In this document: positions 2,363 through 54,599 of the stretch, in pieces
Layout of the letters: the number at the start of each line of letters is the position of its first letter
Numbering within the stretch: position 1 is the stretch's first letter
Assembly: GCA_964016885.1 (NCBI GenBank)
Contig: OZ024740.1
Span: 360,468,001-360,532,000 of the forward strand
Direction: 5' to 3'
Length of the DNA stretch: 64,000 nt
From: Eledone cirrhosa
Taxonomy: Eukaryota
Program-made: the position numbers and the translations under genes
The notes under the pieces: generated by a model
What the model was told of the DNA's origin: nothing
Seen by the model: only the letters and a program-made list of their open reading frames with translations
The model's database searches: none

Positions 2363-2427
2363 TGCTGACGTCACAAGTTTTCTGGCTTTTTGATTGGCTG
2401 CTAACCTGTAGGCGAAGCTTTTAAATA
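2363..2427 (+). promoter_or_regulatory. Core promoter: palindromic CRE, inverted CCAAT box, TATA-like element
   Basis: TGACGTCA at 2366-2373. TGATTGGCT at 2391-2399 is AGCCAATCA (NF-Y consensus) on the minus strand. TTTAAATA at 2420-2427 lies about 180 bp before the ATG. Confidence 0.65.
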
Positions 2428-2607
2428 GAGTGAGCACATTCTTTTCATCCATTTATTAACTTTTTGCTAAATTGTTGTAGTGTTGCCAAAACCTTTGCTC
2501 TCTTCATACTTAAACAATTTCTCTCTCCATACAAACTAACAAAATCTGTTGAATTAATTCACTTGAACTCTATTATCTGGACGAGCTGATTTTATTATAT
2601 TTAAACT

Positions 2608-3303
2608 ATGACTGGAAAACGTCAAGAAGAAAAGGAGTCGGTTATGATGAAAACTTTCCCTCGTAGAATGCGACGGAATGCTCTGGCTTATATCTTTGAG
2701 AACGTTGAAGTTCATTTGAATGGTGATGGTGAAATTGATATCATGTCGGATGAGAAGCTGGAAGATCTAAAACAAAGTGTCGAATCTACAGACCAAGAGG
2801 TGTCGCAGGGTTCAGAAAACTTGTCCTGTCGCGACACAACAGGCTGTAGAGAAACTACGAAAGTGCTGTCCTTGCAAATTAGTCCGGAGGAAAGACTGGG
2901 TGGAAGCACCTTACAACTTTGCCCAGATATTAACCGACCAAGTTGTTTAATAAATATCTGTACTGCGGCAACTTCATCGACTTCTTCCTGTCAATTCATT
3001 TCTTCCAACTTCGATTCTTCCAACTTATCACCATCTGCTGAGATGTTAACCATAAACTTTCCCGACGACTCTTCATCGGACCTGTTGTCTCCGGAATCTA
3101 ATATTCCAAAATGCTTCTCAATGTCTCGAACCCGACGAAATGCTTTACATGATTTGCTGGAAACGTTAACCGAAGCGGATTTGGAGAAGCTGAAATCTTT
3201 GTACCAGTCATCTCTGGCAAATGCATCTTCTTATTCTTACACGTCGCCTTTCTCTGATCTATATCAGGGCCCCACGAGGAACCTCCACGAGTGTACGGCA
3301 TGA
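2608..3303 (+). CDS. Intronless 231-aa acidic/Ser-rich protein with two PKI-like pseudosubstrate motifs (RRMRRNAL, RTRRNALHDLL)
   Basis: Longest non-repeat ORF in the window, with normal amino-acid composition, A at -3 of the ATG and no upstream ATG back to the TATA-like box. Motif 2 (3127-3159) aligns with PKI-alpha RTGRRNAIHDIL; motif 1 is at 2662-2685. Confidence 0.7.
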   Translation: MTGKRQEEKESVMMKTFPRRMRRNALAYIFENVEVHLNGDGEIDIMSDEKLEDLKQSVESTDQEVSQGSENLSCRDTTGCRETTKVLSLQISPEERLGGSTLQLCPDINRPSCLINICTAATSSTSSCQFISSNFDSSNLSPSAEMLTINFPDDSSSDLLSPESNIPKCFSMSRTRRNALHDLLETLTEADLEKLKSLYQSSLANASSYSYTSPFSDLYQGPTRNLHECTA

Positions 3304-4505
3304 ACATAGCATTCTATCGGAATTATTGACCGCTGATAGAATATTTTGTATACCCTGGAGTGAGAATTTCTCCTCCTCGTTTGCCCACTCGACAAGTGAT
3401 GCGCTGTCCGCTGAGGAAATACGAGCTTGGCATGGAAAAATTATACTGATGCCGATAATGAAGAAGCCAATCGTCCTAACAACTCTAAACTGGCAGTAAT
3501 GAAGGAAGGGGGAAAAAAGAAAACAAGTGACAGAAAAAAAAGGAACTGTTCAATTGTAGACTGATTTTTTTTAAAATTTTGTTTATACTGTGATGTAAAC
3601 TCTCTTCATTTCTTGATCTGGAGAAAGTGCTCACCTTGATGTAACACCGAACTGTAGTTTTACTTACATTCGAGTCGCTTGTTGTTGAGGCTAATTCTGC
3701 CTTTGATCCCACTGAATCCTGTGGCATAATGGTCGTGGTATTTATGTGTATCTTTTATGATATTCCATTGAAAAAAACAAAAAACAGAAGCTATACACAG
3801 ACATTAAAACACAAATATATTACACATGCTAAAGAATACAAGAAGCTTTCTGTAAGTTAAATATTCCCGGGTATGAAATAAGCTTTTTTTTTTTCTGATT
3901 GTAAAATTTATCTCTCCATTCGTCTGTCTATCCCTTTCTCGCTCTGTCTACACACTAACAGTCACTTAGTTCATTCAACCTCTTATCTCTTAATTACATT
4001 TTTTTTTTTATAAGTGAACTTTTGTAATAAATGTTTCACAATTAATTTATACATTAATTTCACCTCAGCAATTTTATATATATTTTTCATTTTTATTAAA
4101 CAATTGAAACTTCGAATTTCAATTATTTACTTGGCTTTATTATTTACAAAATAATTTATATTTCGGGGTGTCTTCATAGAAAGAGCGTTTTCTTATTCCT
4201 TGCAATTCTCGTATATCGGGATTAATGTAGGTACAAACCAGGAAGATGGAGTGGCGAATTAAATATTTCATAAGTAATTTAGTCTCGTCTCTCTGCTTTC
4301 TTAGTTCAAATACTATTAGTGGGTGCCAGCTTTACTTTTTGTCTCTTCGGAGGGAGGGGAGTCGATAAAATAAGTACCAGTCGTGTACTGACGATAGTTC
4401 AATTGACTAAACCCACCCTCTTACAAAATCGAGGCCTTATAATAAGGATAATAATAATGAATTATTATATGGCCTTGCTCTTTCCACAAGACTCACACAC
4501 GCGCT

Positions 4506-4538
<33 letters not shown>

Positions 4539-6104
4539 CCAAATTATCAACATATCATCATTTACTTATCACTGTTTGCCTTCGAAACATTTATCTTTTT
4601 AATAAATGTATTTAAATAAGTCAAAGTATTTCTCAGTTTCTTTTTCTCAATGTTTGAGAAGGTGTTGAAGAGAAAAATGAAAATGTTTGGCGATATCGCC
4701 AAATGTTTAAATGCATTTACATTTTTTAACTGTTTTATTTTGTGATTGGACCGTTGTGTTTTTTAAATATCGTTTGATTGATCGATTTACTGTTTGATGC
4801 TTACTGCTTTTAAATGTTATCACTATTCAAAAGATGTTGCTATGTGAAAACAATATATTATTATTTGTTACTGTGATCCTTTTTGCGCTAATGACATCTA
4901 CATATCCGTTATATGTGTGTGTTCTATAGCCCCAAGTCAGCCCTGATTGAGCACGGTTATGATTATCTCGCATTTTTCAGGCCTAGTGCACTTTGGACCA
5001 CACAAGCTAATGAAAGTTTTTTTTTAAAGGAATTCTTCATCATTCTCATACATTTGATAATGTCGTCCTAGACTCACTACGTCTGAAAGAAGATGGAATG
5101 ATCGCGGCTTCAATAATTTTGATCATAGGTCTCCTCCTTCGGGGCTGTCCTCTATATGTACAAGTTCAGGGAGTTTAGTGTATATAATAAGGTGCTCTTT
5201 CAGAACACTAACATTCAGATATTTTGTTATCTTCGTTGTAGTTAAAAAACATTTTTTTTTAAGTAGAGAAAATGAATGAATAAAAATATTGCTGTGTGGT
5301 TAAGGTGTTCGCTTCGCAACCACATGATTTCGGGTTTCGATAAAAGTCATTGACCAATGTCTCGAGTGAAATTTGGTTGATGGAAACTGCAGATGCTCGT
5401 CATGCATATAAAGTAAAAACAAGTTACCAGACATAATAAACGAATGTATATGACAAGTTCATAAATTTAACAAGAAAAAAAAAACAATCAAATATATATT
5501 TGATTCTTTTCTTCGGCTTTGTTTTCCTCATAAGCTTTTAATAATGCATATTTTTAGTTACATTTTGCAGAGATACGTTTGTTTCCACTGTTGAAATATA
5601 TATAAAAATGTATTCAATGCTTTCATTTGCTTAATACTTTCTATTTGTGTTTGTATTAGATTAAAGGGCTGAAACACTCGCTTGAGGAGGGCCTTTTTTC
5701 TGAAAACCTTCTGCTGTCCAACTCTCCTGAGTTTCTAACCACAATGTAAATTTGGACGTTTTATTCATCATGCCTTCCAATTTTTTGTAAATAGTGAGCA
5801 ATTTCGGGTAAATAATGAATAATAATGCCATTTGCTCTACGCCTTCGAAAATGTATCTCTGCAAAATTTAATTTTTGAAATATTCAGAAAGTTATGAAAG
5901 TAAGTCGATGGGACATTGAACGAGTTATGCCCGTTAGGTTTCGCCAATATTTGTATAGATGTTTGTTTATTTAAAGAAAAAATATTGTGATACATGTACT
6001 ATTTCTAATAACACCCAACTGTTAATCTCTATTTATTCCCCCTAATTCTTGAACAGCGCGCGATAGTTACAAGAACTGAACATGTTTTTCTAGTGTACTT
6101 AAAT

Positions 6105-6770: not shown

Positions 6771-7574
6771 TGCATTTTCTAAGCATTTCATCTCATTCGA
6801 CGTTCCAATGTTTATTTACAAATGCTGTTACATTAAAATTAAAATTAGCCAAATATAAATTGAAATTCTATATATAATATATCAACAAAGACTAAAATAG
6901 TACACCGTTTTTTTTTTGTAGTTTAATATATATTTGTTTTTGTAATATTTATAATGCTAAAATAAAGAACTTAAAGGGATTTAATAAAATAACAAAAAAT
7001 AAGTTTTTACATAAAATTATGATTGAAGGTTGTTTTTTTTTTTAGATAAATAACCCTTACAATATTTCTAAAGAAAAACGCTGCATATGATTTGCAATTT
7101 ATTTTGAAGTGTGACTGTTGTAAAAATGAAAGTTCAGGAATCTCAGGTCAGCTGTGACTAAATATCTTCCAAATTCCCTGCAAAACACCCTTGCTGTCTT
7201 CAAAATGAAGTGGGTTAAAATTCACTGTGCCTGTCAAGAGGGTTGCAGCATAAATCTACTCACTCACTCGGATTTAATAATTGTTTCTACTTTTGGCACA
7301 AGACCACCAATTACCCCAATGCATTACTGGTGCTTTAAGTTAACCTTGGGTTAAATAATAGCAACTTCTAACATAACAATTGCTTTGCCTCCAGAACTGA
7401 TCGCATCAACCATCATTCTTTTTGATATAAAGAAACACACAAGGGTAAGTATTGTGTATTAAGTACAACTACCTAAAAAAACTCTACATTTGTGGAGAAA
7501 CAATCTTAATGTGGCTATTGGAAAGTTCAATTACCTTTTATTAGTTAGAATCTTCATCCTAGACTGGATAGAGA

Positions 7575-7606
<32 letters not shown>

Positions 7607-7616
7607 ATCAGTTTAA

Positions 7617-8033
7617 TCCTTTAGCATTTAAACCAGCCAAATTTCTCTCACCCCTTTCTGTTCAAACCGGCCAGAATTCTCCACCTCTTTCTGTTGAAAC
7701 TGGCTGTAACTGGTTGCTCAAACTGATAAAGTATTGTTCTCAAAATAAATACTTTCAAAATCTCAGATTCGATATTATGAAAATATAATAGTATATATAA
7801 AATAATATGAATGCTAAAGGGTTAATCCTTTAGCATTTAAACTGGCCGAAATTCTCTCATCCCTTTCTATTCAAGCTGGTCATAACCAGCTACTCATACC
7901 AACATTAAGGTATTGTTCTCAAAATAAATATCAATCTCATAGATTCATTATTACATGAGATAATTATGTAAGGTAAAGCCTTTACCATGAAAATATAGCA
8001 GTATATATATAGAGTAATGTAAATGCTAAAGGG
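7617..8033. mobile_element. Two tandem ~205-bp TTAA-targeting (piggyBac-like) MITEs
   Basis: TIRs CCTTTAGCATT / AATGCTAAAGG. TTAA at 7613-7616, and a TTAA at 7822-7825 shared between the two copies (7617-7821 and 7826-8033). Confidence 0.65.
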
Positions 8034-10557
8034 ACCATCATTAGAGGGGTTGTCTTTTTTTATAGCATGAAGCTCTAGTCAAACATGGTCCTTAAAGTTC
8101 AAAGGTTTTATTTAATAAATAGCCAGGTTCTGGCACCTGCCTTGGCTCTTGATACCAATTTGCAATAAAATAGCCTCTAAATTCATAAAACAATACAACC
8201 CATTTTAAAGAGTTCCTATTTAAATTTTCCAACATATATAAGAATCTTTCAAGTTATGTTACAAAAACCATCTAAATAATGAAATAATAAATTTAGTAAA
8301 TCCCTTCAAATGCTTCATTAATTAATCCAAATTCAATATATTTCATTAGAAATATAACAACAAAAGGGTTAAAAAGTTTTAATCATGTGTAAGCATGTAA
8401 AACTCTTGTAATGCTACAATCACACAGCATAACATTGGCATCATAGTTTTCATAGGAGTATAATACACCAGAGATGTTCAATCATTCCAACCTGCAACAC
8501 ATTGTATAAGGCACAGTAGGTGTTAAAGCATGCCATCAGCTTTTTAGAAATCAGTGATGGATGCATGTGTAGAACTTTGCATTAAAACACTCAAGTTTTT
8601 TTTAATATCCTGTCATTTTCTCACTTAATTCTTTTGATATAAAGTTGTTTTCAAGTGCTTATGTTTTATCTGAAGCACTTCCAACCTTTGTTAAGTTGTG
8701 CTCCAAACACAAGCTTAATAATGAAAAATATATTTTTTATTACAAAATTTCTCCAAATTCTTGATTATTTTTATAATTATTTGAAAATCATAGGCAGTTT
8801 TTTTCATTAGAAATATGGGAGTGAAAGAGTTAGTGTTTATAATTATCTAAAAACCTTCCATCATAATTTGATATAAAAACCTATAAATTATACTCCAAAC
8901 ACTAGCTTAATAAGACATTTAGTTATTAAATCCCTTCAAATTCTTGATTATTTTCAAAATTATTTGAAAATCATAAGCAGTGTCTTTCATTTAAATATGG
9001 AAGGGTTAATTTATAGTGGAGGAAATGTTATTCCCTAAGGAATAGAAGCCAGTGTTTCAGGTAACACCAATTAAGTGTTCACCTCTCACCAAGAAATGAT
9101 TCTACTCACAACTTCTCTTCCCCACCGCATAAAATTTATTCCACTGTTTGAACAGATTGTATTACTAATTGTCGATACAAATCATCATTAGTTTCATCAG
9201 ATTCTACTGCTTTAATTTATTTGTATATGTGTGTGTGATATAAACATCACATTTGGCATATATATACAATATATATATTTAGGATCTATGTGATATTAAC
9301 CCTTTTGTCACCATAATTGTAATGAGAGACAGACACAGTCTATAATTTTCAAATCAAGATTTTGGTAGGATTTAGTAATATAAAAAACTTTCTCATTATT
9401 AAACCAGCATTTGGAACATAACTTAACAAAGATCCTTACATAACATTTTGGTAAGTTTTTAGGTTAATATAAAAGAGTTAGAGAACTATTTCCAAGGTGG
9501 TTTTCAAACTTGGAGAATATCACTCCTGTTACAGTAAATATCCTTTTGTACAGGTATCCTACACTAATCCATACATCATTAAAGTAAATACCATCTTATA
9601 CAAGTATCCTGCAACTATCCATACAAAATTATGAAAGTATTAGTAAAATATTTTCTTTTTTAATAGTATTTTCTAAATACTAAAAGCAGTGAAATAACTG
9701 AGTTGCTAGAATATCAGATAAAATATTTTGGCTTAAACCAACCCAAAACAAAGCAAAACCTAGTCACCTGACCATGCAAGCATGGAAAATAGACATTAAA
9801 CAATGATAACAATGAATACTTTATGGTATTCATTCCTGCTCTCTGCAATCTGAGTTCAAATCTTGCTATGAACTTTGCCTTTCATCCTTTCGAGCTCAAT
9901 AAACAAAAAACTACCAATCCTATGCTGGGGTGGAGTAGTTTTCCTTGCCCCTATCTCTCTCTCACACAGAAGAAGAAGAAGTAATCAACTTCATTCAGAC
10001 CTGGAGAGAAATGAGCTCTGCTAGGTTTTAATGCTCAAAAGAATGTATATCACTACTGTGCCCTAACAACTCCACGAGGAGTTAAGGGCCCATGCATTTT
10101 GGAGAGAACCCATTCAAAAATTGATAGAAATTGAAATGGGGTTGTCTTCCCTTGCTTAATTCCACTTTCATCTTAGAAATAATTTACTTGGATATTCGCC
10201 ACAATAGAGTGACTTTGTCTAACATGTGCAAGTTTTTAACTTTGTTTAAAATATGTGTGTATGTGTAAAGAGTATTAAAAATAATGAGGACCCTGTTGTA
10301 CTGTACTTCCTCAACACCCGACTGATGGTGCTTCTCTACAACTGATTGGCCTACTAGAAATAATAGTCAAATTTTACCCGTACCCTCTAAAATACAGCAT
10401 AGTTCTAGGTACATTAAATATATGATTCTCAACTAAACTGTTAGTATACTATAGAGTATAGTTATTGTAGTAGCAGCAGCAGCAGTTTTATTTGACACTG
10501 CATGTATATTAAATATACCAGGAGAATGTAAACAAATGCATATTCAATCCATCCATG

Positions 10558-25409: not shown

Positions 25410-28400
25410 GGAAAAGTGGAATGAGCGGTATTCTGGGTATGAAGACATCCTCACCACTGGCTGGTCCATTTAAGACAGTAGCCTCTAAGACTTTTGACAT
25501 CATGGTCTTAATGGTCAGCCGCGTTCCGTTACAAAGTTTCGGAGGGTCTAAGTTTCTTAACAGCATAACTGGAGAGCCTCTTTTAAGTAGCAAATTATGC
25601 TGGGGAAGTCTTTGTGGTGTAAGGCTGTTTAGAAATTCAACCGGGTAATGCACCACCTCGTCCGTGTTGGGAACAGAGTCTATGGACTTGTAACTGATGG
25701 AATCACCAGGGAGTTGTTCTAGGAGTCTAAAATTTAATGCATCCACAGTGAAATTTTTTCGGCGCTAAGATTGCGCGCTGCTTCAGCCAATCGGGATCAG
25801 TGTAATTTCTGGGTAGGTAAGGAAACACCGTTGACATGAGATTTTCGGCTTTAGGTACAACATGCCCAAACGGAAGACATATAGGACCGTCATTTTCGCC
25901 AACTATAGTGCCATTGCCTATTTCCAATAGTTGCCTGGAGAACACCGTGGTCTCTTCATCACCACTAAGATGGACTCTCATGTTAGTTGTAAGATGCATC
26001 GTTTTTATATTTTGCCACAAGTAGGAACACTTGATGCTTGCGTTCACCTCGTCTGCCCTTGTTCCTTTCGAAATAATAGGAAGGGTCTGTCGAAAATCCC
26101 CAGCAAGCAAAACTGTCACGCCACCCATAAGCCGTGTATTCTGCCTAAGATCCTGAAGGGTACGGTCGAGAGCCTCGAAGGCGCCTTTATGGCTCATTGG
26201 CGCTTCATCCCAAATGATGAGGTTGCACTCGTTCAGAATTTTGCCTTTTGTCGAGCCGCGACTGATATTGCAGGTGGGCGTTTCTCTCTTGGATAAATCT
26301 AAGGGTAGCCTAAATAATGAATGGGCTGTACGACCGCCATGTATCAGGGTTGCCGCTATGCCACTGGAGGCCACTCCTAAAGCAATGTGTCCGCATTGCC
26401 TAACTTTAGCCAGAAGCAAGTTGATGACGAAGGTTTTGCCTGTTCCCGCCGGAGCATCAAGAAAAGAAATACCTCCCGCTTTGCAGTCAATACTGGAGAT
26501 TATCATGTTGTAGGCAGTCCTCTGGTCTGACAAAAGTCGAGGCTCGTTGAGCTGTACATAAGCTGCCAAATGCACCTGGTCGTAGCTAATCTCGCGCATG
26601 TACTCAATGTTTAATGAACTGGATGCTTGCTGTGGTTGGGGCAAACCGAAGGTAGCGACGCCCTGACCTCCCATTGCTTGGACTCGTTTATCTAGGTCGA
26701 GTAAGGCCTCGTTGTAGATAGCAGAATTATATTCAAACCCAGCCGTAGGGTCCTGACGCGGAAGTCGGCGGAGGAAGTCTTCGGACATTCTGTTTTTGTG
26801 TGCCTCCCAAAGCTTTAAGGGGTCACTCAAACCGCATGTCATCAGCATGATCGAAAACAGCTGGCGCAGTTGAATTGATGCTTTGAAGGCAGTAGCCTCC
26901 TCCAGAGTCTGATCCCATTGAGCGTCATCTTCCAAGAGTCCAAGTTTGGCACATGCCTCCCTATACGTAGTGCAGAGTTTGCCATTGATGCGCCGTAGCT
27001 CAGTGAAAGAAGTAGGACCCCTAACACCGTGCAGCAACATACGTAAATAAAAGCACTCATGGTAATTTGGATGCACTGTGTACACCCTCCCGATGGCATC
27101 GCTTTTAAAAACGTCTTCTCCGTTCACGTGAACGTGTGCTCCCTGTCGGCGCCTGGTCCATTTATTATGTGCCCAGGTGTAGTAGGTTGGGACGTCGGCA
27201 TAATGAAGCGTTTTAGCAAACGGATCTTCTTGGCACAATTGAAAGAAAGCCGTTAATTTTGTTGCAGGTGGGTTGGCCACCATGCGGCTGGCGGTTTCGT
27301 CAGTATAGTACACTCTTTGCCCATTCTCCAAGTGAATATTCAAGTTTACGACTGTTGGTGAACGCTGATGAATGTCAAAACCAAAAATCCTCCAAATCGC
27401 CTGATTGGATGAAATGTACCTGCCGATTTGATATTGTTGTATTTCATCAGGTTGTGCCCTGCCACCTTGGAGTTCAATGACAGCCATATCCCCTCTCTTG
27501 TTTATGTACTTGCATATGTACTTAATGCTCTTCACCGACGTACATGACTCAACATTGATGTAAGCATTAAAAATCTTGGCAAGAAGAGGGTTATATGGTA
27601 CCACCCACCTGTTGTCGAGGACAATCTCCTGCCCGTGCAGCTTTATTTTTGCTGTAGCCCCACCATCCGCGGGTGCGCGCCGTCTATAGATAGGATAGCC
27701 GTCGATCCCTGTGCGTGTTTCCCGTGTAAAAGATCGTGGAAACCTTTTAGTGCACTTGTTATTCTCCATGCAAGGTGAATTAAAGTTAAGGGTGCCGCAG
27801 GGTCCGTGCATCAATTGTTTGCTCACGGTGTTGAACAATTGCACATCGGTTTGCGGATTGGGCAGTTCTGCGCAAATAATGTTGTCCATGTCCGCTGTTC
27901 GTATCCTGTCCTTGCACCATATAAGGATGTGAGCATGTGGTAGTCCCCGCTTCTGCCACTCCACGGTATACATCCATGCATTAAGACCACCAAATATTTT
28001 GCCGTCTTTCAGTAGCCACATCAATTTCTTGAGTTTCTGCTGGAAGACTCTGGCTATGAGGTCGTGCCTGTCACTACTCACCTGGCCCCGGAAGAAGTAG
28101 GTTTGAATTTCCTCCCATTTTGGATTGCAAGTGAGAGTGATGAAAAGATCAGGCCTGCCAAATTTACGAACACAAGACATTGCATCCTGCATTCTTTGGT
28201 GCATATACCGAGGGGATCCTGTGAAACTTGATGGAAGGATCACCTGTTGTCCGACGTTTCCGGCATAGCCATCACGAATCAGGGCGTCCTGTAAATGGAT
28301 GTATTCCTCCGCACGCAGTTTCTTTTGGTTGAGTCGAATAAAAAGCAGACGTTCTGCCTCGATTTTGGCAAACATATTCACAATGTATTGATTCGTCAGC

Positions 28401-29925
28401 TGCCTGAATCGAAGAAGCTGATTAAAATCTCCACTCCTTACCATAAAGCGGTAGGCATAAAAGTCCATACATGAAATGGATTTCCGTGATTCACTACCAT
28501 TGGAATAATTTACGAAGAGCAAAATTGTATCCGTCCTCTCCGTGGGGGAATAAAAGAGGATACTGAAGGCAATCATACGATCTATGTGTCTCTGTGACAA
28601 ACACCAGCCGACTGTCACGGTGCTGAAGGACAATATCGCGTTTACCATGCTCCTCGCCAACCAAAATCACTGCTACCTTATTGGTATTTGGTGCATTGAA
28701 ACGACGGGCATGCTCGCCAGCTGGTCGCCTGTCAGCCCTTATAATCACCTTGATGTTCGGCGTGGTTTCAATTTGTTCCAAGGCAAACTTGAAATCGTGA
28801 ACGTAGGGATGAGTCACATGGAGCATTGTCTGCAGACTTGCTATTATTCGCCTATCTACACCCTCGTTTAACTTGCAGCGTTGGTCAATCTCGGCCTCAC
28901 CTCCACCCAAAAAGAAAACCTGCAGAAACTTTGACTCTTCATTTGGACGCGGACGAAGACTACCCATGCGATGGTAGCATTGGCCTTGAAGTCTGAATGT
29001 AGTGAAAACGTTGTTGTTGGGGTTCACGCTGTTGTTGGTGTTGTTATTGTCTACACCAAAGGAGGTCATCATGAAACAGGAGTTGTATTTCCACATATTA
29101 CGGCGGAACGTTGTAGCCGTAGTGTCGTCACCTGTAAGTAGATTCAGAAGAGCATATGGCGGGTCAGCCAATGCTCCTAGTTGCACCTTACCTCCTGCAC
29201 AGCACATAGAAGGCGCCTCGCCTGGCCACTTCATTGCGTTGCAGGATGTACAGACATTATCCATTTTACCGATGGAAATTGTAGGCAGAAGTCCGTAATC
29301 CTCAGAGGGGTTATATCTGAAGGCTGCTTTTACCCAGCCTGAGCTCTTGTTAGTAGTAGTTAACGTATGCCGGGAACGCTTAGCAGCAAGCCTGTTGTCT
29401 CTGTCTGCCGTGGACTCCTCTGCAAGTGCTTGTTGACGATGAAGGCGAACACCAGCAAGCCTCGTCTGACGGTATGTTGGTGATTCCTCTGCCAGCGCTT
29501 GTTGGCGATGAAGGCGAACATCAGCAAGCCTTGTCGTACGTGATGTTGGTGACTCAACCAGCCGGGAAAGACGTCTATCAGCGAGTCGAGATTCGCGCTC
29601 AGCAGGTGTTTCCTAGAGAAAATTAATTAATTCTTCTGGTTAGCTAAGCCAATGGCAGTGTCAATAGTAAATGAGAAAAGTCTAACATGAACAAAAGGGA
29701 ATCAAGGTAAGACAAATTTAATATAACTACGATTAGAATGTTGTAGTTGCTTAAAAGTGGTGACAGTTAGGATAAACGCAGTACTTGCTAACATTAAGGG
29801 AGAATATTGCATAAAGGATTAATCAATTGTGAATGAACTCATACCTGAGAACGCCTAATTCGTTGTCTCAAAGCAGTAGCTGTACCTTTTTTGGAGGTAA
29901 GTCTTGAACGTTTCCGTGTAGGCAT
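25410..29925 (-). pseudogene. Helitron Rep/PIF1-helicase (RepHel): spliced N-terminus, two frameshifts, C-terminus missing
   Basis: Zn motif CTSC..CCAGG. HUH Rep motifs DLFITLTCNPKW, VEWQKRGLPHAHIL and KYICKYINK. Helicase motifs APAGTGKT, IIWDEAPM, GDFRQTLP and LCNGTRL. Frameshifts near 28500 and 25750. Predicted exon 1 29925-29845, intron 29844-29613. Confidence 0.9.
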
Positions 29926-33217: not shown

Positions 33218-36145
33218 ATCATCATCATCATCATCATCATCACCGTTTTACGTCCGTTCGTCCACGCTAGCATGGGTTAGACGGGTTGTCCTGTTGTGGG
33301 CAGTGTCTGGTCGGCTGACCATGCCTTGCTCATACAGGAACTGATCTGGCTTGATTTCTACAGCTGGATGCCCTTCCTAACACCAACCTCATTTACAGTG
33401 AGTGCTGGGTGCTTTTTCGTGGCGCCTACACGTCCACTTTACAGTGTGGGCTGGGTGCTTTTTTGCCGTGGCACCTCCACGACCACCTTGCGGTGGGGGG
33501 AGTGGGGGCATATTGTCTATATGCTTCAGCATGTACCCATGGGAGGTCGGGTACCCTGTATTACTGCGTGACGCCAGAAGTCACGGTCGTGCGTCATTGT
33601 CTTTGAGAGGTGTAGTTGGGTAAGGTCGGCTTTTATCACCTCATCCCAAGTCATCTTGGGTCTCCCCACTCCGCGGTTTCCATCAACTTCTAGTGCTCTG
33701 CACCTTTTTATGCAGCTGTCATCCTTCATACGCATCACATGTCCATACCAGCGTAACCGCCTTTCCTGCACGCAGCATTTGATTCCTCTTATGCTCAGTC
33801 TCTCTCTCAATTCCTTTATGCTTTGTCGTTCACGTATATTACTGTTACACATCCATCGGAGCATGCAGGCTTCGTTTCTCTCTAATCTACGTAAGTCTTC
33901 CACCTTCAGCGCCCAGGTCTCACTACCATGCAACATCGCTGTTCGGATACACGCATCATACAGTCTGCCTTTCATTCTGAGGGAGAAGCCTTTTGCAGCT
34001 AGCAGTGGTAGTAGTTCCCTAAACTTCTTCCATCCCGTTCTTACCCTAGTTATTGTACTTTCTGAGCACCCACCTCCGTTACTAATTCGGTCACCTAGGT
34101 AGCAGAAGCTGTCTACTGTTTCTACAGGGCCCTCCCAGAGATTGGTGGTACTTGTTTCCTGTGGCTGTTTACTTGCTGTTTCAGCACAGCTGCTGCATGT
34201 GAATCCTACATTCTTAATTAAGCTTCCTGAGATCCCGCTACATCTCTTGTGTACCCATTGTTTGCATTTGGGGCAGAGAATGGAGTTCCTACCTACACCT
34301 TTCCTACATACTGAGCAAGGCCATTTCCCTGAGGGGATCTGGGTTCTGTTTTCTCGTCTACTTACAAGGACCTTAGTCTTTGTCATGTTGACTTTGAGGC
34401 CCTTTCTCTCTAGTCCCTGCTTCCAGGTTTGGAATTTCTTCTCTAGTTCTACCATAGATTCATCTATGAGTGCGAGGCCATCAGCATACAGGAGTTCCCA
34501 TGGGCATCCGGTCTTAAACTCCTCCGTTATTGCCTGCAGGACTATGATGAACAGGAGAGGGCTAAGAACAGAGCCCTGGTGGACCCCAACCTGTACGCTA
34601 AATTCCTCGTTATACTCATTGCTAATCCTAACTTTGCTGACTGCTCCCCTATACATGGCTTGTACCGCTTTCACAAGCCATTCATCTACTCCTAGTTTTC
34701 TAAGAGCCCACCAGATTACAGCACGTGGAACTCTGTCAAAGGCTTTCTCAAGGTCGACAAATGCCAAGTAGAGTGGCTTACTTTTAGCTAGGTACTTTTC
34801 CTGTAATTGCCTCACAAGGAAGAGGGCATCAGTGGTGCCTCTCCCTGGTACAAACCCAAATTGCATCTCGTCTATATTCACCCGGTCCCTAATCAGCTGT
34901 GCTATAACTCTTTCTGTTACTTTCATGACCTGGTCCATCAACTTTATACCTCTATAGTTTCCTCTATCTAGTGCATCGCCTTTACCTTTGTAGCAGTTGA
35001 CAATGATGCTACTGCACCAATCTTTTGGTATGGCCCCTTCTAGTATTATCTGGTTAACGATACGTGTGGTTATAGTGTGACCTACAGACCCAGATGCCTT
35101 CAGCATCTCGGCAGCTATACCCGATGGACCGGTTGCCTTCCCCATCTTCATATCTCTGATTGCCTTACTTACTACGCTGCCGCTGACTTGTACTGCTGGT
35201 CCCTCTATAGGGTCTACATGGGGTAGGGTCTCTTCTTCCCATGCATTCTCCTCATTTAGTAATCTATCATAATGACTCTTCCATGCATCTTTCTTCTCAG
35301 CACTTGTGAGGGCAAGCTCACCTTTATCATTCCGGATACACTTCTCTCCAATGACATCGCAACTATCTCTGACACACTGCCTCGCAATCTTGAATACCTC
35401 CTGTTTCTGGTCCTCACGTTGTAAAACATGCTTGAATTTTCTATCCTCTGCTTCCCTCCTAGCTAAGTATACTTGTCGCCTAGCTTCCCTCTTGGTCTCT
35501 ATGTAATGTACCCTGCTCCCCCCGTTCTTCCATTCTTTCCATGCCTGTCTCTTGGCCTTGACTGCTTCATCTACCTTATTGTTCCACCACCAAGTCACTC
35601 TCCTCCTGCTTGAAGTCTTACTCCAGCCACAAACCTCATCCGTCGCCTCTAGTAAGTTATTTTTTAGGAACTCCCAGTTCTCTTCTACGTTAAATGTCTC
35701 TATCTGTTCTTCTTTACTGTCGTAGGCGTTGAGTAAAATATCTTTAAATCTGTTACTGGTTGAGGGGACTTTCAGCTTCCAGATCTTTCTTCTCCAGGTT
35801 GGCCTCTGTTTCAGGGCTCGTCTAGTTCTGACCGTGAGGTCGCTGACAACTAAGCTATGTTGGGATGTACATTCCTCACTAGGGAAGGCTTTTGTGTTTG
35901 CGACCGTCCATCTGTCACGTCCTCTGATGAGGATAAAATCTAACTGACTAGAGTGCTCCCCTGATCTATAGGTGATCAGGTGGTTGTCGGGTTTTTTAAA
36001 GTTTGTGTTACATATCGACATGTCATTGGCGTCGCAGAATTCTAGAAGTCTGAATCCTTCCTCATTCCTTGTGCCAGCTCCATAGCCTCCATGTACTCTA
36101 TTGAAGCCGTCGCAGTGTTTACCTACGTGTCCGTTAAAATCTCCT
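33218..36145 (-). mobile_element. RTE-clade LINE, family A, 5'-truncated, with (GAT)n tail
   Basis: Open frame from GDFNGH (APE endonuclease) through RT to [12 protein letters not shown]; 3' UTR contains TTAGGAAGGGCATCCAGCTGTAGAAA. Confidence 0.95.
33526..36021 (-). CDS. RTE ORF2 (partial APE, RT, PHD-type finger); catalytic YADD mutated to YADG
   Basis: [44 protein letters not shown] and YADG. Confidence 0.9.
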
Positions 36146-37709: not shown

Positions 37710-39410
37710 TATTGGAAGATGATTCTATTAGTAGAAATGGGGGAGGGAGTTGTGTGTATATGGGTGTTATGTGTGTGTGTGCGAGTATGTTAAGATGGAG
37801 AGAATATATATTTTGTGTGTGTGTATATATGTGTGTAGGAAAGTGGTTCTATTAGTAGAAATGGGGGAGGGAGTTGTGGGTGTGGGGGTTGTTATGTGTG
37901 TGTGTTGGAGTATGGTTAGCATGTTAAGATGAAGAGAATATATATATATATTGTGTGTGTGTGTGTGTAGGAAAATGATTCCTTTACTAGGAATATTTTT
38001 GAATGAACATATTTTCCTTACTTATTCGTATTTGTTCTGTTGTATTGTCAGTGCAAACGTATGTTAAGGTTTATTTAGTTCGGGTTTTTATTTTCTAAAG
38101 TAGAAGGTGTTATGTGTGTGTGTGTATGTCATATTATGGTGTTGACATAATGTATATTAAACCATATTTAATGCTGGTCTATATTTTTGAATAAACATAT
38201 TTTCCTTATTTATTCGTATTTGTTCTGTTGTATTGTTAGCGCAAAGGTAAAATGGGAAGACTTGGAATTTGGGTGTCTTATTACTTGCGCAAATGTCTAG
38301 ATCTGCACTTAGTGGTATCTGTCTCGTGGTTGGATCTCGTAATTGTTGGCGATGAACTGTCATTCTGTTTCTGAGTGTGAGTTTAGTTTGTCCTATATAA
38401 TCTTCATTGCATCCTTTACATTTAATGGCATAAATCAGATTTTTTGATGAGCAAGTGAAGTGATTTTTTTACAGTAAAATTTTGTCCTGATTTAAATGTA
38501 TACGTGTTGCCTTCAATGAGGTGAGTGCAGGTTCCACAATTAGAGCGACCACATTTTTTGATACTTGCTTGTGGGTTTGTGGTAGGTAATTTGGCATTGG
38601 TGAGTAATGTTTTCAGTGATTTTGGTTGTCTTTTGCTTTTGATTATTTTGTGTGTTTCAAGGGCTTTTTTCATTCTTGGGTCTTGTTTTAGTAGTGGGAT
38701 GTTCTTGTGAATAGTGTTGTAAGCTTCCGCATTTCTTGGGTTGTGTGTTGAGATATATGATAGAATATTGGACATACCTTGAATTTGTTTCTGTTTCCGT
38801 AATTCATCAATGCCTATTGCTTTAGCCCTTTCTATTCCATTATTTATTAGTAATAGTGGGTACTCTCTCTCGAGTAGAATTTCCTTTAATTCTTGAAGTC
38901 TTTTATTTCGCGTTTCATAATTGGAGACAATTGTAAAAATTCTTCTTGCTAGGTTAAAAGGAATGTTCGTCTTCGTGTGCTTTGGATGGTTGGAGGTGAA
39001 TAGCAGATATTGTTTGGAATCTGTTGGTTTGTAGTGTATGTCAGTTTCGATATTTATGTCTTTTTTTAAGATTAAGATGTCCAGAAATGGGAGTTGATCT
39101 TGGCTGTATTCCATTGTGAATTGGATGTGGTTATTGATGCCGTTTATTAACTTTTTGAAATCCTTCAGTTGGTCGAGTGTGTGGGACCAAAGAATGATGC
39201 AATCATCCAAGTAGCGTTTCCAATTCTCTGATAAATATTTGTGGAAGTTCAATCCATATTTTGATTTGGACTGTTCATATATCTGGACTTCTAAGTATGC
39301 CATGACTAAGTTGGAGCGGCTTTTGTACCCATCGATATTTGCTTGTAAGTATTGCCATCGAAATCAAAAAAGTTGTTCTGTAAGATGAATTTTAATCCCT
39401 ATATATAAAG

Positions 39411-47041: not shown

Positions 47042-48967
47042 TTAATTAGGTTTATAATATTTAAATGTTTTTCTCAGTTTATGATTACATGATATAATTA
47101 ATTCCTGTCGCTTATTTAATAGGATATCCCTAGATTTCATTATTTCAAATAGTTCTTGGGAACATAATCTACATTCATTTCTATTATTTTGATAAGGGGT
47201 GGCTCTTTTGAGCACACTCCAGGTCATATCATATTCTATATTCTTATTTCTATAACTATTAATTTTTTCTGCTAGAGATGTTGTATTAGCCAGTGCGGCA
47301 TTTTTAAAACTATGTTTGTGGGTATTAAACCTTACCTTAAAATTGTTATAAGTAGCTCCTATATATGAGCAAATAGAATCTTTAGTTTTAACTTTACATT
47401 TATAAACTATGTTGTTAACAAGACAATTTCCTTTTAATGGGCAGTTTACTTTGTTTCTACAGTTACAACCTTTCGTTAATTCTGTATTTGAGGAGATATT
47501 ATGGTTAGTTTGATGTATTGGTGGTATACTTATGGTTTTTTTACATTTATATGCATTATAGGCACTTATATTTTGTTTTATGTTTTTGGTTGTTGAGTAT
47601 GAGAATTTAACTGTTGACCTATTTAAGATTTGATGGTATTTGTGGTTTGGCGGGAAGTTTTTCTCTAGGATATAAAAAAATTTTTTAGCAATATTATCCT
47701 TAATTTGTAAATTAAATGGAGCATTATACCAAGTAACTCGTCTATTACGGTTTCTATGTTGTTTATTATTTTTATAGGTTGTATCGTGATGTTTACTAGG
47801 AGGATTAATGTTAATGACCTCACCACGCACATTTTTAGTTAGATTTATTGATTTAGGTGTTTTATCTTGTTTATTAGGAGTTTTATTATTAACATTTATT
47901 AGAGTTGTATGATGAGTAGTTTTTTGAGAGTTACTATACTTTATATTAGAGGAGTTGTTGGTATTTTGGGGTATAGTGTGGGTGGCATTTAGGTGTGTAC
48001 TTTTCATTTGGTGTTTGTTGGTAATATTAGGTTGTATGTTTATAGTATTTTTAGTAGAAGGTATATATTCTAATCTATTTTTGTGGCCACTTCTATCTAG
48101 AGCTTCGTTATAGAAGGTCGCATTTTTATCAAATACATCTTGGTTAGACGAAAGGTTAGAAATTCTAAGTGATATATTATATGCAAGGTTTTTAAGGATA
48201 GATTTAGGGTGATTAGATTGTGAGTGTATGTAGTGTAAGTTTTGGTTGGGTTTATGGTAAGGTTGGTAGATACCCGTAGCTAAGTCTAAAGTTATATCTA
48301 GGAAATTAACTACTTTACTTGTGTTTTCAAAAGTAATATGAAGACTATAATAGTCTTTAAGGAAAGTTCTAATAAGCTTTTTGTTTTTTTCTATTTCTGA
48401 GAGGCTAAGGTTGTTGGAAAGAAGAAGACAGTCATCACGATATAAACCACCTTTAAGGTGGGGAAAGGAAGCATTTATGTTGAAAAGAAGAAAGAGGCCC
48501 ACAAGATCAGTAATTTGGGCAGAATCGCTTGAACCCATAGTAATATCAAATAGATTACTATATGTGTTTCTGGTCCAGTATTCATTCTGAAATTCAATAA
48601 GTGTTAGTCTAGCATGTGTAATAATATTAATGTCATCCAAAGTTAAGTTAGATCTATTTTTACCAAATATCAAAGCTTTGTTCAGGAGTATAGGTGATAT
48701 AGAAGAATAGTAATTATCTATATCAAATTGTAGAAATGAAGCAGAAGATTTACATCTAATATTTTTAAACCAGTTAATTACCTGGGAAGTGTTTTCCCAG
48801 AGTGGTAAATTAACATGTTTTCTTATTTGTGGGATGACTCTATCCAAAATTTTTTTGCTAATTATTCCAATATCAGATTTGGAGGGACATATAAGTCTTA
48901 TAGAAGGATTTGAGTTAAAGTTTGATTTATGATCCTTCAGGTTGAAGTGTGGTCTATTCAATGCCAA
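47042..48967 (-). CDS. PLE reverse transcriptase + C-terminal GIY-YIG endonuclease (N-terminally incomplete)
   Basis: QFDIDNYYSSI, ITMGSSDSA, GLYRDD, VNFLDITL, an Asn/Lys-rich insert, CNCRNKVNCPLKGNC, IVYKC..SYIGAT..FKVRFNTH, and CRLC..SCNH. Confidence 0.9.
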   Translation of the reverse strand: MALNRPHFNLKDHKSNFNSNPSIRLICPSKSDIGIISKKILDRVIPQIRKHVNLPLWENTSQVINWFKNIRCKSSASFLQFDIDNYYSSISPILLNKALIFGKNRSNLTLDDINIITHARLTLIEFQNEYWTRNTYSNLFDITMGSSDSAQITDLVGLFLLFNINASFPHLKGGLYRDDCLLLSNNLSLSEIEKNKKLIRTFLKDYYSLHITFENTSKVVNFLDITLDLATGIYQPYHKPNQNLHYIHSQSNHPKSILKNLAYNISLRISNLSSNQDVFDKNATFYNEALDRSGHKNRLEYIPSTKNTINIQPNITNKHQMKSTHLNATHTIPQNTNNSSNIKYSNSQKTTHHTTLINVNNKTPNKQDKTPKSINLTKNVRGEVININPPSKHHDTTYKNNKQHRNRNRRVTWYNAPFNLQIKDNIAKKFFYILEKNFPPNHKYHQILNRSTVKFSYSTTKNIKQNISAYNAYKCKKTISIPPIHQTNHNISSNTELTKGCNCRNKVNCPLKGNCLVNNIVYKCKVKTKDSICSYIGATYNNFKVRFNTHKHSFKNAALANTTSLAEKINSYRNKNIEYDMTWSVLKRATPYQNNRNECRLCSQELFEIMKSRDILLNKRQELIISCNHKLRKTFKYYKPN

Positions 48968-52642: not shown

Positions 52643-54599
52643 ATCATCATCATCATCATCACCGTTTTACGTCCGTTCTTCCACGCTAGCATGGGTTAGA
52701 CGGGTTGTCCTGTTGTGGGCAGTGTCTGGTCGGCTGACCATGCCTTGCTCATACAGGAACTGATCTGGCTTGATTTCTACAGCTGGATGCCCTTCCTAAC
52801 ACCAACCTCATTTACAGTGAGTGCTGGGTGCTTTTTCGTGGCGCCTACACGTCCACTTTACAGTGTGGGCTGGGTGCTTTTTTGCCGTGGCACCTCCACG
52901 ACCACCTTGCGGTGGGGGGGTGGGCATATTGTTTATATGCTTCAGCATGTACCCATGGGAGGTCGGGTACCCTGTATTACTGCGTGACGCCAGAAGTCAC
53001 GGTCGTGTGTCATTGACTTTGAGAGGTGTAGTTGGGTAAGGTCGGCTTTTATCACCTCATCCCAAGTCATCTTGGGTCTCCCCACTCCGCGGTTTCCATC
53101 AACTTCTAGTGCTCTGCACCTTTTTATGCAGCTGCCATCCTTCATACGCATCACATGTCCATACCAGCGTAACCGCCTCTCCTGCACGCAGCATTTGATT
53201 CCTCTTATGCTCAGTCTCTCTCTCAATTCATTTATGCTTTGTCGTTCACGTATATTACTGTTACACATCCATCGGAGCATGCAGGCTTCGTTTCTCTCTA
53301 ATCTACGTAAGTCTTCCACCTTCAGCGCCCAGGTCTCACTACCATGCAACATTGCTGTTCGGATACACGCATCATACAGTCTGCCTTTCATTCTGAGGGA
53401 GAAGCCTTTTGCAGCTAGCAGTGGTAGTAGTTCCCTAAACTTCTTCCATCCCGTTCTTACCCTAGTTATTGTACTTTCTGAGCACCCACCTCCGTTGCTA
53501 ATTCGGTCACCTAGGTAGCAGAAGCTGTCTACTGTTTCTACAGGGCCCTCCCAGAGATTGGTGGTACTTGTTTCCTGTGGCTGTTTGCTTGCTGTTTCAG
53601 CACAGCTGCTGCATGTGAATCCTACATTCTTAATTAAGCTTCCTGAGATCCCGCTACATCTCTTGTGTACCCATTGTTTGCATTTGGGGCAAAGAATGGA
53701 GTTCCTACCTACACCTTTCCTACATACTGAGCAAGGCCATTTCCCTGAGGGGATCTGGGTTCTGTTTTCTCGTCTACTTATAAGGACCTTAGTCTTTGTC
53801 ATGTTGACTTTGAGGCCCTTTCTCTCTAGTCCCTGCTTCCAGGTTTGGAATTTATTCTCTAGTTCTACCATAGATTCAGCTATGAGTGCGAGGTCATCAG
53901 CATACAGGAGTTCCCATGGGCATCCGGTCTTAAACTCCTCCGTTATTGCCTGCAGGACTATGATGAACAGGAGAGGGCTAAGAACAGAGCCCTGGTGGAC
54001 CCCAACCTGTACGCTAAATTCCTCGCTATACTCATTGCCAATCCTAACTTTGCTGACTGCTCCCCTATACATGGCTTGTACCGCTTTCACAAGCCATTCA
54101 TCTACTCCTAGTTTTCTAAGAGCCCACCAGATTACTGCACGTGGAACTCTGTCAAAGGCTTTCTCAAGGTCGACAAATGCCAAGTAGAGTGGCTTACTTT
54201 TAGCTAGGTACTTTTCCTGTAATTGCCTCACAAGGAAGAGGGCATCAGTGGTGCCTTTCCCTGGTACAAACCCAAATTGCATCTCGTCTATATTCACCCG
54301 GTCCCTAATCAGCTGTGCTATAACTCTTTCTGTTACTTTCATGACCTGGTCCATCAACTTTATACCTCTATAGTTTCCTCTATCTAGTGCATCGCCTTTA
54401 CCTTTGTAGCAGTTGACAATGATGCTACTGCACCAATCTTTTGGTATGGCCCCCTCTAGTATTACCTGGTTAACGATACGTGTGGTTATAGTGTGACCTA
54501 CAGACCCAGATGCCTTCAGCATCTCGGCAGCTATACCCGATGGACCGGTTGCCTTCCCTATCTTCATATCTCTGTTGCCTTCCCTATCTTCATATCTCT
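52643..54599 (-). mobile_element. RTE family A, 5'-truncated; RT ORF 52942-54567 with intact YADD
   Basis: Near-identical to 33218-35160, with a (GAT)n tail. Confidence 0.95.

Follow-up and report, generated by a model that had tools for sequence, protein, structure and literature searches.

The question posed by this locus is whether an octopus genome carries, behind a full CRE, a gene for a protein that would block the kinase by which cAMP signals. In a window of 64,000 bases from Eledone cirrhosa, which is the whole stretch of DNA analyzed here, one uninterrupted open reading frame (ORF) contains the motif RRNAL at two places. By its sequence, the gene encodes a pseudosubstrate, i.e., RR-x-Ala/Gly with no Ser/Thr acceptor. 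The relatives collected for it form what is, as far as their sequences tell, a spiralian (mollusc and ribbon-worm) family of multivalent PKA-type pseudosubstrates, undescribed in the literature searched. In the literature covered there was likewise no description of an endogenous mollusc PKI or of TCIM or AVPI1 as a pseudosubstrate, which does not show absence from print.

The gene and the predicted protein

The ORF occupies positions 2608-3303 of the forward strand and specifies 231 amino acids without an internal stop; no ATG occurs in 2441-2607, that is, just upstream of its start. It had been called intronless in the first-pass annotation, and the reading frame is indeed unbroken over the whole interval and colinear with those of its orthologs. 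In all four sequencing runs the ORF is spanned by single contigs, with no joint listed inside. Differences between the runs fall within it at positions 2703, 2844, and 3247; two are synonymous and one is P214S, and the modules described below are unaffected.

The four runs belong to one study, the kind of which is not on record, and no RNA run is listed. One of them, X3, comprises 88 million letters of contigs, as against approximately 1,400 million in the other three. Its contigs cover 2460-4009, 3999-4382, 4384-4490, and 4546-4619, with no listed piece over the promoter, and would fit a single-exon transcript that begins 40 bases downstream of the TATA-like site and ends shortly after the AATAAA at 4601. 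We do not count this pattern as evidence, since one study of unknown kind shows no start, end, or level of a transcript. The candidate polyadenylation signal itself (AATAAA, 4601-4606, forward strand) has a second copy at 4026. The interval 3304-4620 contains 10 ATTTA elements compared with 5.75 expected, an enrichment of AU-rich elements that is not significant (P=0.058).

The AlphaFold2 model predicts that the encoded protein is mostly disordered. The mean pLDDT of the 231-residue protein is 47 and its pTM 0.19, and confident segments are found only around the helices at aa 172-186 and 189-208. Serine accounts for 36 of the 231 residues and is concentrated in the linker between the modules, in agreement with the Ser-rich linker that had been noted between the two RRNAL motifs. 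Searching the PDB with the full protein produced three matches, none of them meaningful (E≥0.97), and with module 1 alone one chance match. Matches to DED/PYRIN structures in the ESM Atlas, scoring up to 0.86 for aa 160-215 (Pfam DED, 14.2 bits), were rejected as a resemblance of amphipathic helices.

The two modules

The pseudosubstrate pattern R-R-x-Ala-hydrophobic is present at aa 22-26 and aa 176-180, within the segments RRMRRNAL (aa 19-26) and RTRRNALHDLL (aa 174-184) in which the duplicated RRNAL had originally been recognized. Two motifs of this type occurred in none of 5000 shuffles of the protein, and one motif in 31 of the 5000. The two modules are not linked by any DNA repeat, and the module does not recur elsewhere in the 64-kb window.

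Module 1 (aa 14-33, with R22-R23-N24-A25-L26; 2647-2706, forward strand) was delineated from the alignment, motif counts, and weak Pfam matches. Upstream of its core it has Arg at P-6 (R19) and a hydrophobic residue at P-11 (M14); among ten coleoid sequences, module 1 has Arg at P-6 in nine and Phe, Leu, or Met at P-11 in eight (Phe in five). A helix preceding the module (aa 6-13) is predicted with pLDDT below 50 only. Behind module 1, 14-17 aligned residues of the relatives have no counterpart in the window protein (2716 region, after aa 36), and because the segment behind it is shortened in this way, the module may be weaker or bind differently in the window species.

The first-pass annotation paired the two motifs with two similar helices, MSDEKLEDLK and LTEADLEKLK. 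The former (aa 46-55; 2743-2772, forward strand), earlier treated as helix 1, does not, according to the alignment, belong to the conserved portion of the module. Its start lies 20 residues past motif 1, and it shows 0-20% identity outside the three closest octopus-type proteins (scored in P0004, P0007, P0017, P0018, and P0028; relatives are numbered in this manner throughout), and the relatives have a different segment directly behind motif 1. The equivalence of the two helices was consequently dropped.

Module 2 (aa 174-200, with R176-R177-N178-A179-L180 and then a helix; 3127-3207, forward strand) was delineated from the alignment, Pfam, and the predicted complex. Its 13-residue core, RRNALHDLLETLT, is invariant in all 12 coleoid-type sequences, as are L195, L198, and Y199. 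The pair His-Asp at P+2/P+3 is common to module 2 and PKI-alpha. A caveat had been attached to this motif, namely that its Arg stands at P-5 and its Phe at P-9, not at P-6 and P-11 as in PKI. The description is correct, module 2 having no Arg at P-6 and a Lys at P-11, and the caveat is softened by module 1 of coleoids, which mostly has the PKI-like residues at both positions. The form R-x-R-R-x-A, as in module 2 of paralog 1, also suits kinases of the Akt/RSK/SGK type.

A Leu-rich NES as in PKI had likewise been proposed, and this part of the earlier interpretation did not hold, since the consensus scan found no conserved NES. There is no match in the module 2 helix and none anywhere in P0002, P0004, and P0007; the window protein has a sole match (aa 26-35), which P0002-P0004 and P0007 lack, and every NES class is matched by approximately 48% of shuffles. 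Nuclear export in the style of PKI is thus not supported by the scanned sequences.

Relatives and conservation

Two full-length relatives were identified among 455 candidate proteins, Octopus bimaculoides A0A0L8HSK0 with 70% identity over 100% of the length and another with 68%. An exhaustive profile search gave four matches, adding two relatives with 37-39% identity (relatives at this distance span 37-42% overall) and a protein of the bivalve Dreissena polymorpha in which a related module is present four times. With a profile built from nine stretches of the module, 20 proteins were retrieved among 8000 scored candidates. The relatives include a second coleoid paralog, represented by Argonauta hians GAB1602774.1 and by a cluster that includes Sepia pharaonis CAE1234015.1, a five-module protein of the nemertean Tubulanus polymorphus (XP_074648929.1), and further proteins with six, three, two, or one module, the distant relatives ranging from one to six. 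The annotations of the named relatives say no more than uncharacterised or hypothetical. The two coleoid paralogs are split with full support in a tree of 11 rows that carries a long-branch warning. One relative is present on 109 contigs of up to 3.2 kb and one paralog 2 protein on 134 of up to 2.7 kb, in runs the kind of which is not given.

Judging by these alignments, the octopus-type gene is conserved and constrained, with a second coleoid paralog. The suggestion that conservation should be focused on the RRNAL modules was borne out, as the core of module 2 is 100% identical across both paralogs in the seven relatives scored, compared with a linker identity of 2-29% outside the octopus-type trio.

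A pattern blind to position P0 detected 49 modules in 20 of 40 proteins, counted without near-duplicates and read-through forms and with one P0020 module missed. The RR pair is present in all 49. The acceptor position P0 is occupied by Ala in 44, Gly in 5, and Ser or Thr in none (Ser and Thr together make up 19.8% of residues), a count that is partly ascertained, since the search profile carried Ala at P0. The proteins P0015, P0016, and P0022 were outside the search profile, and all 14 of their modules obey the rule of RR plus Ala/Gly.

The non-redundant set comprises 25 modules with less than 70% identity, drawn from 46 modules in 18 proteins. The RR pair is again invariant (25/25), and P0 is Ala in 20 modules and Gly in the other 5. 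Two observations, Ser/Thr at the Ala position and a lack of conservation of RRNA-hydrophobic, had been named beforehand as speaking against a pseudosubstrate, and neither was made. Downstream of the acceptor position, P+1 is Leu, Met, or Val in 23/25 modules, P+3 is Asp or Asn in 23/25, P+4 is Ile, Leu, or Val in 25/25, and P+5 is Phe or Tyr in 19/25. Upstream, Arg at P-6 is found in 6/25 modules family-wide and Phe at P-11 in 2/25; Arg or Lys at P-5 is found in 13/25, and module 2 of paralog 2 has lost the basic P-5 residue.

Several minor observations concern these proteins. Outside the modules, paralog 1 keeps two motifs in an otherwise divergent linker and tail. The linker motif RPSCL (2935-2949, forward strand) is invariant in paralog 1 (100% in P0002, P0003, P0004, and P0007) and absent from the aligned paralog 2 sequences. 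The C-terminal motif R-x-x-H-E-C-x-A (3277-3300, forward strand) has R224, H227, E228, C229, and A231 invariant in all five rows of the paralog 1 alignment. All five paralog 2 proteins (P0017, P0018, P0020, P0028, and P0029) end in T-x-V (TQV or THV), an ending that we take to resemble a class I PDZ-binding motif and that could anchor the second paralog. P0006 and P0012 (DPMN_156567 and DPMN_156572) are four-module Dreissena genes, 88% identical and with close locus numbers, that likely arose by tandem duplication; the ESM Atlas gave no usable match with P0006. Forms with Trp where the main form stops were seen in both paralogs (P0005, P0008, P0009, P0010, P0014, and P0021; P0019, P0025, and P0030). 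Stop codons altered by A-to-I editing were set aside as their origin in favor of a probable gene call under TGA=Trp, because six long extensions hold 3-7% Trp.

Comparison with PKI

The window protein shares with PKI-alpha SGRTGRRNAIHDIL the core R-R-N-A-hydrophobic-H-D. It further resembles PKI in its predicted disorder and, in module 1 of coleoids, in the Arg at P-6 and the hydrophobic residue at P-11. It is otherwise unlike PKI, which has one site in 76 aa (3wyg_D), in having two sites in 231 aa, and up to six in relatives. Other differences are the absence of the P-6 Arg and P-11 Phe from module 2, its downstream helix predicted to lie on αG, and the lack of a conserved NES in the octopus-type protein. 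The Phe of PKI at P-11 is situated on an N-terminal helix.

According to the accessible part of one source, the P-6 Arg of PKI contacts E203, and the P+1 pocket of PKA prefers a hydrophobic residue, with Leu, Met, or Val fitting; no mention of the αG and P-11 pockets was found in that part (PMC12184650). R-R-X-S/(A/G)-hydrophobic is given as the consensus of all PKA R subunits and PKIs (PMC5059767, partial text), and PKI 14-22 is reported to inhibit a flatworm PKA (PMC2724707, partial text).

Pfam PKI (PF02827) matches the window protein at module 2 with 14.2 bits at a cut-off of 25, and the relatives with 12-20.7 bits, the best being P0004 (20.7 for the whole protein, matching aa 10-31, i.e., module 1). 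The two best PDB matches of the module profile are both PKI-alpha and both weak (E 0.027 and 0.2). The PKI-like reading of the first-pass annotation stands with respect to the duplicated R-R-x-Ala-hydrophobic pattern but misses the Pfam PKI gathering score.

Comparison with TC1/TCIM, ARHGAP36, and R subunits

Pfam TC1 (PF15063) matches the window protein with 12.4 bits over aa 11-35 (cut-off 27) and is the best Pfam match for five multi-module relatives, P0015 (17.5 bits), P0006 (23.2), P0012 (24.0), P0022 (25.7), and P0016 (27.6). Among the 19 relatives scanned only P0016 passes the cut-off, with a score summed over repeats. It is the downstream half of the module that aligns with the N-terminal portion of the TC1 profile, with the best stretches inside profile positions 6-42 of 75 and the C-terminal portion left without a match. 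Unlike TC1, the family has repeated modules and a full RR pair and leaves profile positions 43-75 unmatched. This leaning toward TC1, together with the sub-threshold PKI scores, places the module between PKI and TC1, below both thresholds. A common ancestry of PKI, TC1, and the module is, on these profile matches, a lead and not a result.

AVPI1 is a member of the TC1 family (TCIM/C8orf4), and the human TCIM site that matches the module presumably reads R-K-K-A-V. The octopus-type gene, with its uninterrupted ORF and mean pLDDT of 47, resembles TCIM, which is single-exon and disordered. TC-1/TCIM is described as single-exon and reported as confined to jawed vertebrates (PMC5349172, partial text), and the protein as disordered with helical segments and binding Chibby (PMC3506533, partial text). 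Tcim is on a list of genes that respond to forskolin and to ciliary cAMP (PMC9346484, partial text), and log2 fold changes of 4.1 and 7.0 are given for it after GLP-2 receptor agonists (PMC12073449, partial text).

A decoy of the form R-R-X-(A/G)-hydrophobic in a non-PKI protein has a precedent in ARHGAP36 (RRGAV), in which the pseudosubstrate also coexists with a second function (PMC5059767, accessible part). Unlike ARHGAP36 and the R subunits, the window protein is multivalent, and Pfam found no RhoGAP or cAMP-binding domain in it. Given the lack of a Pfam match to a cAMP-binding domain, cAMP is not expected to cause release. PKA R subunits likewise engage the surface of αG next to the cleft; the literature search found no supporting paper for this use of αG.

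Predicted complex with PKA-C

The complex was predicted for aa 163-204 with an invertebrate-type PKA-C and ATP/Mg. The kinase (L021) comes from another animal and served as a stand-in; its top PDB matches are PKA-C at approximately 690 bits, and its numbering is the mammalian one plus 2. The complex score is 0.75, compared with 0.02 for the best of three controls, among which there were no related kinases, and the prediction cannot discriminate between PKA and its kinase relatives. Between runs, the agreement in contacts is 81% or higher, and the partner has a pLDDT of at least 68. The score mark is reached by 51/78 solved and 2/108 mismatched pairs (39/65 and 2/126 for eukaryotes), a calibration that has peptides, disordered chains, and ligands outside its range. 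PKI(5-24) is contained in 164 PDB entries, and the pass may be driven by memory of PKA:PKI structures.

Module 2 is predicted by this model to sit in the PKA cleft in the canonical P-2/P-3/P0 register, with R177 contacting E172, T203, and E205, R176 contacting F131 and E172, and A179 contacting T203. The downstream helix is predicted to pack on αG and on the segment after the APE motif. The lowest-error pairs connect L195 with Y249, E250, V253, and I212, and further low-error pairs connect L198 and Y199 with V253, L213, and E250. That these helix contacts coincide with the invariant L195, L198, and Y199 constitutes independent agreement, as the model did not use the alignment. Kinase residues 237-241, which we take to be the pocket for the P-11 Phe of PKI, are not listed among the predicted contacts, which with this tool is no proof of an absent contact.

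Promoter elements

The candidate full palindromic CRE, TGACGTCA, is located at 2366-2373, 235 bases upstream of the ATG. It is the sole full CRE in the 64,000 bases, with 0.2-0.4 expected window-wide, and the chance of finding one in a given 300 bp is approximately 0.1-0.2%; TGACGTCA was obtained in 17 of 5000 dinucleotide shuffles of 2151-2460 (310 bases). The perfect CRE of the first-pass annotation is accordingly present and unique in the window. The other two elements listed with it were also found. The CCAAT box is inverted (ATTGG, 2393-2397, reverse strand) and weak alone, given its 46 copies in the window, and the TATA-like element TTTAAATA (2420-2427, forward strand) is non-canonical and has 7 copies in the window.

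Proposed mechanism and alternatives

In molluscs, long-term memory is classically formed by way of the cAMP-PKA-CREB loop. We consider it somewhat probable that the two-decoy protein plugs PKA-C and that the upstream CRE makes it a cAMP/CREB-induced feedback brake on PKA. In such a scheme, cAMP would free PKA-C, CREB would become active, and the CRE would drive the octopus-type gene. The new protein would then bind up to two free catalytic subunits in a manner that cAMP could not reverse, and the signal would end. In module 2, according to the model, two Arg would contact acidic residues of the cleft, with Ala179 at the phospho-acceptor position; module 1 would instead use PKI-like upstream contacts, Arg at P-6 and a hydrophobic residue at P-11. 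The linker of approximately 140 residues might let one chain hold two catalytic subunits, and the path from PKA through CREB and the CRE to the new protein would close a delayed negative loop. Inhibition, stoichiometry, specificity, and induction are what we infer for the octopus-type protein. From the original proposal of a two-site PKA pseudosubstrate behind a CRE, motif conservation and predicted docking are retained, whereas the helix equivalence, the NES, and the match to Pfam PKI are not.

Such a multivalent decoy for PKA, driven by the CRE, would offer a concrete means of shutting off the cAMP-PKA-CREB loop, and a second design for PKA inhibitors, using a downstream helix, is suggested by the family. 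In Octopus bimaculoides, creb and egr1 are reported to be learning-induced (bioRxiv 2025.10.16.682951, partial text). A broader proposal, which we regard as doubtful, is that the module represents the ancestral unit of PKI and TC1 (TCIM/AVPI1) and that the spiralian proteins are CREB-induced "PKA sponges" gripping αG by the downstream helix. If this were true, the helix grip on αG would be a mode not used by PKI(5-24), molluscs would have a transcriptional off-switch for their cAMP-PKA-CREB memory cascade, and human TCIM, a strongly cAMP-induced single-exon gene, would be an unrecognised PKA feedback inhibitor.

Other readings of the same data were weighed. The modules may be pseudosubstrates for another basophilic kinase (PKG, a PRKX-type C subunit, Akt/SGK/RSK, or Pim), with or without PKA, which we judge unlikely. 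Module 2 of paralog 1 does have its Arg at P-5 and not at P-6, basic residues at P-5 are more frequent in the family than Arg at P-6 (13/25 vs. 6/25), and the complex controls included no related kinase; however, RR at P-3/P-2 is fixed in all 25 modules, whereas module 2 of paralog 2 no longer has the P-5 residue, and Arg at P-6 is present in module 1 of 9/10 coleoid sequences. The Leu, Met, or Val at P+1 of 23/25 modules corresponds to the preference of the PKA pocket (PMC12184650, accessible part). It is decidedly unlikely, in our estimate, that the protein binds PKA-C but is a multivalent buffer or tether by which free catalytic subunits are stored or localised, and not an induced off-switch. 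Up to six modules per chain in relatives would suit such a role, RPSCL, the C-terminal motif, and the T-x-V end of paralog 2 could recruit other partners, and ARHGAP36 combines a pseudosubstrate with a second function (PMC5059767, accessible part); yet a full CRE beside an uninterrupted ORF fits induced expression, and occupancy of the cleft inhibits wherever the kinase is located.

A disordered adaptor similar to TC1/TCIM, acting through its helices on Wnt/Chibby or other partners, with RRxA not being a kinase decoy, appears quite improbable. It would account for TC1 being the best Pfam match of the five multi-module relatives and would parallel the disorder, helical segments, and Chibby binding of TC-1 (PMC3506533, partial text). 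Against it, the best stretches are confined to profile positions 6-42 of 75, scores are summed over repeats, the window protein reaches 12.4 bits, and the fixed RR-x-Ala/Gly-hydrophobic matches the PKA consensus and needs no Chibby. Finally, that the ORF or its motifs are a product of chance or a relic is extremely improbable and already refuted by conservation: no Pfam match of the window protein reaches its cut-off, but full-length orthologs and paralogs exist, the 13-residue core is invariant in 12/12 sequences, and two motifs occurred in 0/5000 shuffles.

Other features of the window

The long ORFs outside 2608-3303 are mobile elements or simple repeats. A 973-aa Helitron-like ORF with Helitron_like_N and PIF1 helicase domains is located at 25727-28648 (reverse strand), and non-LTR retrotransposon ORFs, with a reverse transcriptase followed by a PHD finger, are located at 33526-36021 and 52942-54567 (both reverse strand). 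The ORFs at 47042-48538 and 38422-39303 (both reverse strand; 498 and 293 aa) have no Pfam match at E 0.001 and are presumably fragments of Penelope-type elements. The interval 7141-8208 shows very high summed contig depth in all four runs and represents a high-copy repeat.
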